Shown: positions 41,147 through 43,708, numbered from the stretch's first letter. The stretch: DNA of 64,000 nt from Alphaproteobacteria bacterium (GCA_963555825.3 CAUVXB020000001.1:1888001-1952000); one strand, 5' to 3'. Made by a program: numbers and translations. Notes: generated by a model not told the origin, from the sequence alone.

Positions 41147-43708
41147 ATGAGCCACGACGACTTCCAGGACCCGTACCAAGACCCGACGTTGGCGGCGTAT
41201 CTGTCGAACGTGATCGACTGGCATGGCTACATCCGCTTCCTGGGCCTCCCCCATCTCCGCGACAACCCGGACATCCGCATCGACCGGCTTTACGTGGAGC
41301 CCAGGCTGGCCGAGCGCCACATCTCCCCCGACTCCGATCCCGACGAGTGGCCTGAAACCCGAACGCTGCACCAGGCGCTGACGGAGCGTCCATCGCTGGT
41401 GGTCCTCGGCGACCCCGGAAGCGGCAAGTCGACGCTCGTGAGTTGGCTCGCCTGGCGCTTCGCCCATGGGCCGGAGAGCGCGTGGACGGAGACGTTCGGG
41501 CGGTTGGTGCCAGTGCCGTTGGTGCTGCGCGAGCTTGAGATCGGCGCGGGGATCGATTGGCGCGGGTTGTGGGCGGCCTTTCTCGACCATGAGATGGCCA
41601 CTCCCCTTCGCAATGCGGGCAACGTCGAAGGGTTCTTGGAGCGCGGCCAAGCGTTGATCCTGTTCGACGGGATCGACGAGATCGGCGGCATTGCAGTTCG
41701 GAAGGCGCTCATGGCGGCGATCCGGGAGGGGGTCGACCTGTATCCGGAGTGCCGATGGCTGTTGACATCGCGGCTTGTCGGCTATGCCGAGGCGCCCCTC
41801 CATCTATTCGACGATGACCGGGAGAATGTCATGCGGGAGGCCGACCTTGGAGACTCGATTTTTGTGTCGAGTCCGGCCGCCGCCTGGTACGTCGCCCCCT
41901 TCACCGACGCCCAGATCGACCACTTCGCCCGCAACTGGTACGCCCAGCGCGAAGCGGCGCCGAAGGTGGCAGCGGAGCAATCGCAAGCCCTGGTGGGCGC
42001 CATCGGCGATGCCACCGCGACGCGACGGCTCGCACGGGTGCCCAACCTGTTGACGATGATGGCGCTGATCTTCCGGGTGCGGGCGCGGCTACCGCACGGG
42101 CGGGCTCTCCTCTACGACGAGATCTGCGAGGCCTACCTGGAATCCATCGATGAGTTCCGGGGTGTCGACCGCCTCGACTATCCCCTTGTGGAGAAAAAAC
42201 GCTGGCTCGCTGCCGTCGGCCTGCGACTGCAACAGCGCCGGGCGGAGCAACAGCAGAACGACGACGAACCGAGGGAAACGCGCGAAATTCTCGTCGAAGG
42301 GTCCGATGTCAAAGCCTGGATCGGCGGGGCCATGGAAAACTCGGGCTATCCCGGCGACGAGGCCGACGCCGCGAAGTTCGTCGACTACATCGGCCGGCGG
42401 AGCGGCCTGCTCCTCCCCCGAGGCGCCGACACCTTCGCGTTCATGCACCTGTCTTTCCAGGAATACTTCGCCGCCTGCGCCCTGGAAGACTCGGTGACTT
42501 CGCCCGGATGGCTGCGCAAGGGCGAGACTGCCGACGGTATTACGAAGGCCACCCTCCAGGCGTGGACGCGCGACACGAAATGGCGGGAAACCTTCATATT
42601 CCTGTTCGAACGCCTGGCGAGCCGCCGCGAGTGGGTGGAAGCCTTGTCCGAAGACCTGTTCGGCGCCGACTTCGAGAACTTGGTGCCTGAAAATGAGAAT
42701 GCCTACTCGGTCGCCGTCCTCGTGACTCTGCTTACAGTCAATCCGCATTCAGGGTTCACGCAGGCGATGCGGGAGGCAGCGATCGAGAAGAGCATCATCG
42801 CCGAGGTGGCCGAGCAGCAAAGGCTGGTTCGGGACAGAGGCAAAGGCGGAAGCTTATTCTGGCAAGCGGTTTCCATTGTCCGAAACGGGTTTTCCACCGA
42901 CTACGAGTGGAGGACGAAGGTTCCGGAACTCATCGCGAACGCGGCCGATGGTGCCGAAGTGTTGGCTCTTGATGGCGCGAGCGGCGTCAAGGATATCTGT
43001 TTTCTTGCTCGCATTTCGACGTTGAAGTCGCTTTCTCTCGACGATACGGCCGTTTCGGATCTGGGGCCGCTCGCTGGGCTGACAAGATTGAAGGTGCTCT
43101 ATCTGAGCCGCACGGCCATTTCGGATCTGGGGCCGCTCGCTGGGTTGACCGGATTGCAGCGGCTCTATCTGGACGGCACGGCCGTTTTGGATCTGGGGCC
43201 GCTCGCTGGGCTGACCGGATTGCAGGTCCTCGACTTCAACGACACCGGCGTTTCGGATCTGGGGCCGCTCGCTGGGCTGACCAAATTGCTAAACCTCGGC
43301 TTAGACAGCACAGACGTTTCGGATGTGGGGCCGCTCGCTGGGCTGACCAAATTGGGGCGCCTCAGGCTCGGCAACACCGGCGTTTCGGATCTGCGGCCGC
43401 TTGCTGGGCTGACCGGATTGTGGAGCCTCAGCCTCGACAACACGGGCGTTTCAGATTTGGGGCCGCTCGCTGGGCTGACCGAATTGTGGAACCTCAGCCT
43501 CGCGAACACTGGCGTTTCGGATCTGAGGCCACTCGCTGGGCTGACCGGATTGCAGCACCTCGACCTCGACAACACCGGCGTTTCCGACCTAAGCCCGTTG
43601 CTACGCCTAGAACGATTGGAATCCTTGTCCCTCCGAAGCACCAACGCCCCCCCCGAGCAAGTCGCAGCCCTTCAAAAATCCGTAGAGATTGACGGTCTCG
43701 GCGCCTAA
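41147..43708 (+). CDS. NACHT NTPase with C-terminal leucine-rich repeats (bacterial NLR-like)
   Basis: Walker A GDPGSGKST, Walker B LILFDGIDE, LTSR, PNLL, winged-helix FMHLSFQEYFAA, then nine 22-aa LRRs. Confidence 0.92.
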   Translation: MSHDDFQDPYQDPTLAAYLSNVIDWHGYIRFLGLPHLRDNPDIRIDRLYVEPRLAERHISPDSDPDEWPETRTLHQALTERPSLVVLGDPGSGKSTLVSWLAWRFAHGPESAWTETFGRLVPVPLVLRELEIGAGIDWRGLWAAFLDHEMATPLRNAGNVEGFLERGQALILFDGIDEIGGIAVRKALMAAIREGVDLYPECRWLLTSRLVGYAEAPLHLFDDDRENVMREADLGDSIFVSSPAAAWYVAPFTDAQIDHFARNWYAQREAAPKVAAEQSQALVGAIGDATATRRLARVPNLLTMMALIFRVRARLPHGRALLYDEICEAYLESIDEFRGVDRLDYPLVEKKRWLAAVGLRLQQRRAEQQQNDDEPRETREILVEGSDVKAWIGGAMENSGYPGDEADAAKFVDYIGRRSGLLLPRGADTFAFMHLSFQEYFAACALEDSVTSPGWLRKGETADGITKATLQAWTRDTKWRETFIFLFERLASRREWVEALSEDLFGADFENLVPENENAYSVAVLVTLLTVNPHSGFTQAMREAAIEKSIIAEVAEQQRLVRDRGKGGSLFWQAVSIVRNGFSTDYEWRTKVPELIANAADGAEVLALDGASGVKDICFLARISTLKSLSLDDTAVSDLGPLAGLTRLKVLYLSRTAISDLGPLAGLTGLQRLYLDGTAVLDLGPLAGLTGLQVLDFNDTGVSDLGPLAGLTKLLNLGLDSTDVSDVGPLAGLTKLGRLRLGNTGVSDLRPLAGLTGLWSLSLDNTGVSDLGPLAGLTELWNLSLANTGVSDLRPLAGLTGLQHLDLDNTGVSDLSPLLRLERLESLSLRSTNAPPEQVAALQKSVEIDGLGA
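43022..43615 (+). repeat. Nine 66-bp tandem repeats encoding LRRs
   Basis: Core GTTTCGGATCTGGGGCCGCTCGCTGGGCTGAC recurs every 66 nt. Confidence 0.95.

Follow-up and report, generated by a model that had tools for sequence, protein, structure and literature searches.

The window analysed in this study, a stretch of 64,000 nucleotides (nt) from an Alphaproteobacteria bacterium (GCA_963555825.3, CAUVXB020000001.1:1888001-1952000; positions are counted from its first letter), contains a gene for a NACHT protein that ends in an array of nine 66-bp leucine-rich repeat (LRR) units. At the DNA level, these units are recent copies of one another, and comparison of relatives revealed that throughout the protein family whole 66-bp units are gained, lost and re-ordered, the turnover of the array being far more rapid than that of the remaining protein. 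We consider it likely that a cytoplasmic bacterial STAND NTPase resembling the NOD-like receptors (NLRs) senses its ligand through this array, its C-terminal LRR domain, and that this fast-evolving domain belongs to a KAP cassette lying within a transposase-flanked island of a sponge-associated bacterium.

Repeat units and codon identity

A preliminary description of the window had divided each unit into a scaffold half, nearly identical even at synonymous sites, and a beta-strand half that differs from unit to unit; the nine beta-strand strings it quoted were found to be exact. Tandem Repeats Finder detected a period of 66 at positions 43046-43584 (8.2 copies, 78% matches, score 450), with the higher-order periods 132 and 198 scoring 565 and 628, respectively. 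The variable unit positions are 2, 3, 5, 7 and 8, which are near random, positions 10, 15 and 22 are semi-variable, and the ninth unit is diverged. Among units 1-8, the mean pairwise DNA identity was 0.886 (range 0.85-0.95) over codons 10-22 and 0.599 (range 0.41-0.85) over codons 1-9, and the mean pairwise protein identity of the window units was 0.652.

At the 14 scaffold codons, the same codon was used in 282 of the 364 unit pairs (0.775), compared with an expected share of 0.36 when calculated from the N-terminal part of the same gene, 0.34 from the adjacent KAP gene and 0.51 from aroQ plus accC; the claim of identity at synonymous sites therefore holds after control for codon usage. Rare codons were common to all units keeping the residue, namely GCT (8/8 units; 3% of the Ala codons in the gene), GAT (8/8; 16%), TTG (8/8; 16%) and GTT (7/7; 11%). 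Since the same-codon excess includes these rare codons, the likeness of the units reflects identity by descent or homogenisation and not codon bias. The division into two halves stood in so far as the scaffold is homogenised at the DNA level, but no clean half-and-half boundary was observed: L1 (TTG in 8/8 units) and L4 (CTC in 7/8), which lie within the "variable half", are synonymously fixed, L6 and T9 are synonymously randomised (same-codon pairs 0.33 and 0.25 versus 0.28 and 0.36 expected), and positions 10, 15 and 22 of the "constant half" vary.

Substitutions at exposed and scaffold positions

Nei-Gojobori counts among units 1-8 gave proportions of nonsynonymous (pN) and synonymous (pS) differences of 0.593 (corrected value dN, 1.18) and 0.552, respectively, at variable codons 2, 3, 5, 7 and 8, 0.342 and 0.014 at positions 10, 15 and 22, and 0.037 and 0.151 (dS, 0.17) at scaffold codons 11-14 and 16-21. 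The pS was 0.453 at scaffold codons L1, L4, L6 and T9, and 0.233 over all scaffold codons. Divergence at the exposed positions was 4- to 7-fold above the synonymous divergence of the scaffold, and the excess of nonsynonymous change that the reading of the preliminary description called for at the concave positions is present, whether the variable pN is set against the scaffold pS of 0.151 or that of 0.233.

DNA of relatives was available as 18 arrays with at least five units (15 distinct) from 53 metagenome loci. In 8 of the 18 (7 of the 15 distinct), pN at the variable codons exceeded pS of the constant-half scaffold, as exemplified by L078 (0.318 and 0.071), L093 (0.412 and 0), L048 (0.28 and 0.043) and L070 (0.352 and 0.176), and in 14 of the 18 pS was higher in the beta-half scaffold than in the constant-half scaffold. 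The window array falls within the homogenised subset and is not extreme there. The pattern needs either diversifying selection or a homogenisation that spares, or is selected against in, the variable segments.

Predicted fold of the NACHT-LRR protein

The frame encoding the protein is also open from an ATG at 41054 (884 codons, 41054-43708); the ATG at 41147 is favoured as the start, as the database representative P0001 begins with MSHDD there and a GGAGGG is located 13 nt upstream. Pfam PF05729 matched residues 115-246 of the 884-aa frame with 28.1 bits (cut-off 26.7). Residues G88, D89, P90, G91, G93, K94, T96, D174, G175, D177 and E178 were invariant in 30 and 40 aligned homologues, and the motifs GDPGSGKST and DGIDE were invariant in the 40. 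No Pfam domain was found ahead of the NACHT module, where about 85 conserved residues precede the P-loop. From sequence and model, the N-terminus appears to be a conserved short pre-NACHT segment and not a secretion signal, and the protein lacks the N-terminal effector or adaptor domain of a tripartite architecture.

An AlphaFold model built on the alignment of 40 homologues had a predicted local distance difference test (pLDDT) score of 85.6 and a predicted template modelling (pTM) score of 0.80, with a pLDDT of about 95 in the LRR part. In this model, each unit has one short strand, at unit positions 3-5, and the strand of the degenerate leading unit lies 22 residues ahead of the first array strand. 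The top whole-chain match in the PDB, as searched by Foldseek, was autoinhibited NLRC4 (4kxf; E 2e-21, TM 0.45, 15% identity), followed by NLRP3 and NOD2. The LRR part superposed on internalin A with a root-mean-square deviation (rmsd) of 1.2 A over 220 columns at 39% identity; the sequence match to internalin A had an E value of 1e-58, and the Chlorobium Roco LRR scored similarly. The variation was found to be concentrated at positions 2, 3, 5, 7 and 8 of the beta-strand and ascending loop, in agreement with the preliminary description, and by analogy with internalins this exposed face may bind the ligand. With a NACHT module, a C-terminal repeat sensor and an NLR-like whole-chain fold, the protein shares these features with bacterial NLR-related proteins.

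Site pattern in related proteins

A protein search returned 1283 proteins at E<=1e-3 among 7999 scored candidates. The best 120 of these were 38-51% identical over 66-97% of the query; all carried LRR_4 and most carried NACHT. One homologue was named from Candidatus Accumulibacter, and homologues end with a cap similar to that at 43616-43705. Among 40 related genomes no full-length relative was found, the matches being confined to the LRR part or weak, among 400 genomes of the phylum there was one full-length relative (33% identity), and a tblastn search of plasmids gave no match. An over-general motif scan (GDPG[SIT]GK[ST]T, HLSFQEYF) yielded 24 loci that were left out as distant NACHT genes (24-34% identity over most of the query in 20 of the 24).

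The members examined have 22-residue units and lineage-specific scaffolds, for example GVTDLGPLGGLSK, PVSDLTPLSNLTG, GVSDISPLAGLTG and GVTDLRPLAKLTA, with variation at positions 2, 3, 5, 7 and 8. For 100 of the 120 best-matching proteins, those with at least six chained units, the mean within-protein entropy was 1.3-1.7 bits at positions 2, 3, 5, 7 and 8, about 1 bit at positions 10, 15, 19, 21 and 22, and 0-0.3 bits at L1, L4, L6, T9, D13, P16, L17 and L20. Scaffold identity was 0.80 within and 0.65 between proteins, so that each lineage has a scaffold consensus of its own; the window protein ranked 49th of the 100 in this comparison. The variable positions were enriched in Q, N, S, W, D, G and Y, with P, L, A, I and V depleted 4- to 100-fold; they do not vary freely but within the limits of a hydrophilic or aromatic surface.

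Turnover of units between relatives and strains

The preliminary description had proposed comparing the number and order of units among relatives and strains, and both were found to differ, between close relatives as well as between the window and a further strain. Among the best 120 proteins, the non-repeat N-terminal parts were compared with the arrays in pairs, which are not independent because kin form clusters. At an N-terminal identity of 99-100%, both of the two pairs had equal unit counts, one pair of arrays being identical and the other differing at one variable position. At 95-99%, none of the nine pairs had kept its unit count, and at 90-95% eight of 49 had; those eight were 0.36 identical at variable and 0.90 at scaffold positions. 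The pairs P0039/P0116 (95.1% identical, 13 versus 10 units) and P0030/P0118 (95.7%, 10 versus 9 units) had no variable signatures in common. In P0062/P0082 (97.1%, 10 versus 9 units) five of six signatures were common, and in P0003/P0009 (96.6%, 13 versus 11 units) six were common out of 8 and 7, with the order changed in both pairs. At least two identical units were present in 41 of the 120 homologues and were adjacent in 25. The identical units together with the pair comparisons indicate that whole-unit duplication, loss and re-ordering are ongoing in the family.

For strains, the comparison with the window over 39500-44500 used Logan contigs from four runs, each of a different study; runs X6-X11, marine and sediment metagenomes with small word shares, were left out. 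With a possible assembly artefact in mind, it was noted that the contigs of runs X12, X13 and X17 are interrupted at 43054-43080 and 43252-43278, at recurrences of the exact 27-nt scaffold motif, and so give no independent evidence on how units 1-4 are ordered. Outside the array, the X5 contigs differed at 4/1008, 1/355, 0/262 and 1/726 letters (0-0.4%; about 99.7% identical), whereas over 43318-43739 the X5 contig had 30 other letters and 2 gaps. All 21 listed differences matched in place and letter those predicted if units 5, 6 and 7 stand in place of units 6, 7 and 8. The X5 strain is one unit shorter between units 5 and 9, with units 7 and 8, the most similar pair, as one; since these two units have no common 31-mer, a graph mis-join is unlikely. 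Repeat number is polymorphic, as observed in the X5 strain and in the nine pairs at 95-99%, and units have been reshuffled in relatives, the window's own array showing a single-unit difference only.

KAP partner gene

The gene directly upstream of the NACHT-LRR gene matched Pfam PF07693 (KAP_NTPase) with an E value of 1e-26 (94.3 bits, cut-off 20), and its PADLOC matches were PDC-S20 (8.4e-25), QatA (1.1e-21) and PifA (2.3e-10). Its score against the NCBIfam QatA model, 93.2 bits, was far below the cut-off of 600 bits, and no curated NCBIfam or PADLOC model reached its cut-off for either protein of the cassette.

A scan of metagenomes by alignment of family-specific motifs gave the 53 loci mentioned above. 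In 41 of them, the same-strand gene immediately upstream was a KAP homologue with 30-48% identity (E 1e-20 to 1e-134), a share that becomes 35 of 47 when six duplicates are set aside. In most loci the stop codon of the KAP gene adjoins or overlaps the NACHT reading frame. Of the 12 loci without a KAP gene, 10 had less than 1400 bases of upstream sequence; in the other two, L074 and L094, there was room upstream and the KAP gene was absent, L094 having an N-terminal helix-turn-helix (HTH) domain instead. The KAP plus NACHT-LRR pair behaves as a self-contained cassette. The window's genome has exactly two KAP-family matches, both directly upstream of genes for 22-residue LRRs, which suggests a functional link between KAP and LRR that is independent of NACHT. 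The second KAP gene (contig 2 of genome G000, 476396-480301; loci L015 and L100) precedes, with an overlap of about 64 nt, a 343-aa LRR-only protein with 22-residue units, the same kind of C-terminal cap and no NACHT. The partnership of the KAP protein with the NACHT-LRR protein is probable on these grounds, and the putative assignment of the pair to defence is based on homology and not on context.

Some variants of the cassette were also noticed. A caspase domain (Peptidase_C14) is located N-terminal to the NACHT-LRR part in L061:982-4398, unlike in the window protein, and in L094:4912-7356 the HTH stands ahead of the NACHT-LRR part with no KAP gene upstream. Two KAP homologues with in-frame stops, L053:601-2010 (four stops) and L076:3524-4855 (one stop), may be pseudogenes or reflect sequencing errors, and both were left out of the alignment of KAP homologues. 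At position 40839 of the window, inside the KAP gene, the X5 contig is one base short (depth 6.7), owing either to a frameshift in that strain or to a contig error. In L072:4941-6732, genes for an AAA_15/AAA_21 ATPase and a DUF3226 protein are situated just downstream of the cassette.

Genomic setting

The cassette is located in an island of about 31-44 kb in the window with a GC content of 0.55-0.63, compared with 0.67-0.71 in the flanks (Table 1). The island also holds a nitroreductase-family gene and a metallo-beta-lactamase-fold gene, and the NACHT-LRR gene is followed by the housekeeping genes aroQ, accB and accC. In runs X12 and X13, a segment of about 60 nt between the Mutator-family transposase and the KAP gene (39512-39571) had contig depths in the thousands, versus 24-76 in its flanks; it is probably the end of an insertion sequence or another multicopy element in those samples. 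Few defence or mobile neighbours were found in relatives, namely two DNA methylases, Vsr, AAA_15/21 with DUF3226, a zeta toxin and an integrase.

Table 1 Features of the window, with coordinates counted from its first letter
Feature	Coordinates	Strand	Remarks
S24 peptidase/HTH repressor	30788-31486		Low-GC island
Methyltransferase with recombinase-like HTH	32050-32991		Low-GC island
DDE transposase gene	36548-38158	-	Pfam; inside low-GC island, upstream of KAP gene
Mutator-family transposase gene	38296-39540	+	Pfam; directly upstream of KAP gene
KAP-family P-loop NTPase gene, 460 aa	39607-40989	+	Open reading frame (ORF); directly upstream of NACHT-LRR gene
NACHT-LRR STAND NTPase gene	41147-43708	+	ORF; 853 aa from ATG 41147
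NACHT NTPase module	41396-41791	+	Walker A GDPGSGKST (41408-41434), Walker B LILFDGIDE
Degenerate leading LRR unit EVLALDGASGVKDICFLARIST	42956-43021	+	Array register kept; model strand at residues 605-607
Nine in-frame 66-bp units	43022-43615	+	22-residue internalin-type LRRs; consensus LxxLxLxxTxVSDLxPLAGLTx; Pfam LRR_4 E 2.9e-31
Unit 8	43484-43549	+	One of units 7/8 absent in run X5 strain (unit-number polymorphism)
Last strand and C-terminal capping helix LESLSLRSTNAPPEQVAALQKSVEIDGLGA	43616-43705	+	Model strand 826-828, helix 836-843
aroQ	43999-44454		Island end

Alternative explanations

Several observations weigh against reading the array as the fast-evolving sensor of a defence protein. 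Some of them are what would be expected if it were an ordinary structural LRR, shaped by folding constraint, a few recent tandem duplications and neutral drift at the exposed positions, and with the identical stretches having no special function. The pN/pS ratio of the variable codons by themselves is close to 1 (1.17, both values being saturated), 10 of the 18 related arrays resemble ordinary LRRs, being old, with a pS that has reached saturation (0.67-0.80) and weaker conservation of the scaffold, and three of the four runs revealed no change, the contigs of X12, X13 and X17 matching the window with 0-1 other letters per piece. A conserved scaffold with variable x positions is also seen in every LRR, and the periods of 132 and 198 bp were the best in Tandem Repeats Finder, as block duplication predicts. 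Further points on this side are that 5 nonsynonymous and 4 synonymous changes separate the recent units 7 and 8, that homogenisation of the scaffold alone could yield an excess of pN over scaffold pS, that formal positive selection at the variable codons is unproven, and that the unit identity of the window (0.652) ranks 71st of 117 around a family median of 0.69 and is not extreme; a unit identity of at least 0.85 was found in 5 of the 117 relatives. For the X5 strain, the evidence comes from a single contig (depth 8.6) of one run. PADLOC NACHT models gave no match to the window NACHT-LRR protein, the sole PADLOC match being mad8 (E 0.0094), and no NCBIfam model reached its cut-off for it (EruA, 24.6 bits versus 1000). 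Among the 97 flanking ORFs of relatives, most were housekeeping genes, a weak defence context, and none of the 17 runs holding the window sequence is on record as RNA.

Drift, however, predicts that divergence at free sites equals the synonymous divergence of the scaffold, and the values observed were 0.593 versus 0.233; the ratio of variable-codon pN to scaffold pS was about 4 or more in L078 and L093. The variable positions are not free either, P, L, A, I and V being depleted and W, Y, Q, N, S and D enriched, and the loss of equal unit count in all nine pairs at 95-99%, with several pairs lacking any common variable signature, is not what a purely structural repeat would give. Plain drift after duplication fails to explain the site pattern, and an ordinary structural LRR seems to us rather unlikely.

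It is improbable, too, that the gene encodes a eukaryote-like LRR protein acting in the interaction with a sponge host, for example by modulating phagocytosis, instead of a sensor of invaders. LRR and ankyrin proteins are abundant in sponge symbionts. The window sequence was found in 17 public-run rows from 9 studies, including sponge metagenome runs and several coded organisms, and among solved LRR structures the closest are those of internalins, whose concave face binds host proteins. Against such a role, the protein joins the LRR to a NACHT NTPase and its fold as a whole resembles NLRC4, the N-terminus as judged above is probably not a secretion signal, and the occurrence of the cassette in 53 loci of many metagenomes, together with the homologue in Candidatus Accumulibacter, indicates that it is not specific to sponges.

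The preliminary description had also envisaged donor LRR cassettes elsewhere in the genome, by analogy with the variable lymphocyte receptors (VLRs) of lampreys. A search of the 6.04-Mb genome with the 27-nt scaffold motif, allowing up to 3 mismatches, gave eight matches, all eight inside the array and none on the reverse strand, and a control with the reversed motif gave 0 matches. A single further LRR gene was matched in the genome, with a protein identity of 49%. As no donor cassette was found in the genome, VLR-like assembly was rejected for this locus and the analogy does not extend to mechanism; the array was likewise rejected as the target of a diversity-generating retroelement (DGR), there being no template repeat or second copy of the array and all four RVT_1 matches being on the other contig. 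The latter are at 2342888-2343547, 2479408-2480106 and 2789830-2790493 of contig 2 of G000, two of the four being adjacent like a split gene. Programmed rewriting of the array from silent donor cassettes, as in VLRs or antigenic variation, or by a DGR is therefore highly improbable, even though conversion could be anchored on the near-identical stretches of scaffold, the genome has four reverse-transcriptase matches and NACHT proteins with DGR-diversified sensors occur in other bacteria according to passages of PMC10907252; nor were joints inside the array seen in contigs of the four runs, contigs being blind to rare variants. Of the diversifying receptor proposed at the outset, the homogenised scaffold, the variable face and the turnover of modules remain, but not the cassette system, and the diversification was observed between strains and species.

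Proposed mechanism and implications

For a fast-evolving sensor of this kind, the following course can be envisaged. Through the identical scaffold stretches of 27-33 nt, units from different places in the array would become aligned in register during homologous recombination or replication slippage, so that the variable segments would act as modules that are duplicated, deleted and shuffled, and the scaffold would thereby stay homogenised. Point substitutions at the 5-8 exposed positions, kept hydrophilic or aromatic, would retune the concave binding face. Such turnover is probably germline, population-level evolution by in-register recombination and not programmed somatic assembly. By analogy with animal NLRs and with tested bacterial NACHT proteins, a ligand, probably a phage protein or a protein of another invader, would release autoinhibition and lead to oligomerisation through NACHT. 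Since the NACHT-LRR protein has no effector domain of its own, output is probably exerted via the co-encoded KAP NTPase. Function in defence, the nature of the ligand and the role of KAP are put forward here as inferences.

The conserved KAP partner suggests a division of labour between sensor and helper that is undescribed in the literature searched. A broader proposal, which we regard as possible and put forward tentatively, is that KAP plus NACHT-LRR constitutes a widespread and previously undescribed two-gene immune cassette with a sensor under the evolutionary regime of fungal NLRs, the first case in LRRs and in prokaryotes. If this is true, populations would hold a standing repertoire of array alleles, i.e. 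a library of "antigen receptors" arising from in-register recombination alone, and the KAP ATPase would be the signalling or executing partner. How the sensors of bacterial NACHT proteins keep pace with fast-evolving invaders is known mainly from lectin folds diversified by DGRs; the family of 1283 proteins would represent a second route, by recombination only, in the repeat type of animal and plant NLRs. Bacteria would also offer a direct test of a long-standing question, whether NLR sensors in general evolve with high internal conservation and hypervariable sites. Natural series of near-isogenic receptors distinguished by their arrays alone (among them P0062/P0082, P0003/P0009, and the window versus X5) are suited to the mapping of specificity by array swaps.

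Comparison with known systems

The upstream gene resembles the KAP defence genes QatA, PifA and PDC-S20 in encoding a KAP P-loop NTPase that matches their models, and differs from them in being paired with an LRR-bearing gene. In contrast to QatABCD, QatB, QatC and QatD are absent, the neighbours are transposases and the NACHT-LRR gene, and the score stays below the QatA cut-off.

The LRR part shares 22-residue units and 33-39% identity with internalins and the Chlorobium tepidum Roco LRR, with an rmsd of 1.2-3.4 A. Ligands of internalins bind on the concave face. Unlike internalins, the window LRR is fused to NACHT in a protein that is neither secreted nor wall-anchored, and the NCBIfam internalin models were matched in the LRR region only, at 136.8 bits versus 1050 (internalin_H) and 132.1 versus 1600 (internalin_A). 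Lamprey VLRs are likewise built of LRR modules in which the scaffold is conserved and the concave residues are hypervariable, and their diversity arises by recombination between LRR modules. However, they are surface or secreted proteins, whereas the protein described here is an intracellular STAND receptor with neither flanking nor distant donor cassettes. As in the animal NLRs NLRC4, NLRP3 and NOD2, NACHT, helical domains and LRR are present in one chain; the differences are a 22-residue internalin-type LRR in place of the 28/29-residue ribonuclease-inhibitor type, the lack of CARD or PYD and a sequence identity of about 15%.

Among bacterial systems, sensors of the lectin fold diversified by DGRs are described on both NACHT and KAP NTPases in passages of PMC10907252. 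Main-text passages of Kibby et al. (bioRxiv 10.1101/2022.07.19.500537) report that bacterial NACHT proteins defend against phage, count LRRs among "antigen receptor-type" sensors and name bNACHT16 as having LRRs. The window protein is like the bNACHT proteins of those passages in its central NACHT, its C-terminal tandem-repeat sensor, its mammalian-NLR-like fold and its cytoplasmic location. It differs in having about 85 residues before the P-loop and no N-terminal effector domain, in escaping the PADLOC NACHT models, and in its conserved upstream KAP NTPase, which those passages do not mention, although the supplementary tables may list the clade; nor do they describe internal conservation or unit turnover of LRRs. 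In the 2026 STAND survey (PMC13581612), LRR, leucine-rich and KAP are absent from the main text, and again the supplementary tables may list the clade. Kaur 2020 (PMC7159879) has LRR once and KAP twice, in passages which, as far as consulted, are unrelated to a KAP plus NACHT-LRR architecture. Supplementary tables aside, a full-text literature search found neither homogenised hypervariable LRR arrays in bacterial NACHT proteins nor a description of the KAP plus NACHT-LRR pair.

The closest counterparts in mode of evolution are the NLR repeats of fungi, for which passages of PMC4986451 describe WD, ANK and TPR repeats (and no LRR) with high internal conservation, number polymorphism, reshuffling and positive selection at surface positions. 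According to the parts consulted of the Dyrka 2020 preprint, prokaryotic NLRs "do not display LRR repeats", and diversification is merely suggested there for bacterial WD and TPR repeats. In the fungal proteins (NACHT-WD HET-E/D/R, NWD, ANK and TPR types), the same passages of PMC4986451 present a NACHT receptor whose units are near-identical except at binding-surface positions and whose repeats show number polymorphism and reshuffling, with concerted evolution as both cause and consequence, and in all these respects the present family is alike. The likeness to fungal high-identity repeats that had been suggested for the array was borne out in number polymorphism, reshuffling and surface sites, but not in the identity of the units, which is 65% in the window compared with at least 85% over at least 100 residues as used by Dyrka 2014 (PMC4986451). 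In addition, the presence of one NACHT-LRR gene in the window's genome leaves no possibility of exchange between paralogues, and there is no repeat-induced point mutation. The hypervariable sites lie on what would be the ligand-binding surface, a role established for internalins and transferred to the present protein by analogy. The evolutionary regime of the array is a variant of that of the fungal NLR repeats, here in LRRs and in bacteria.

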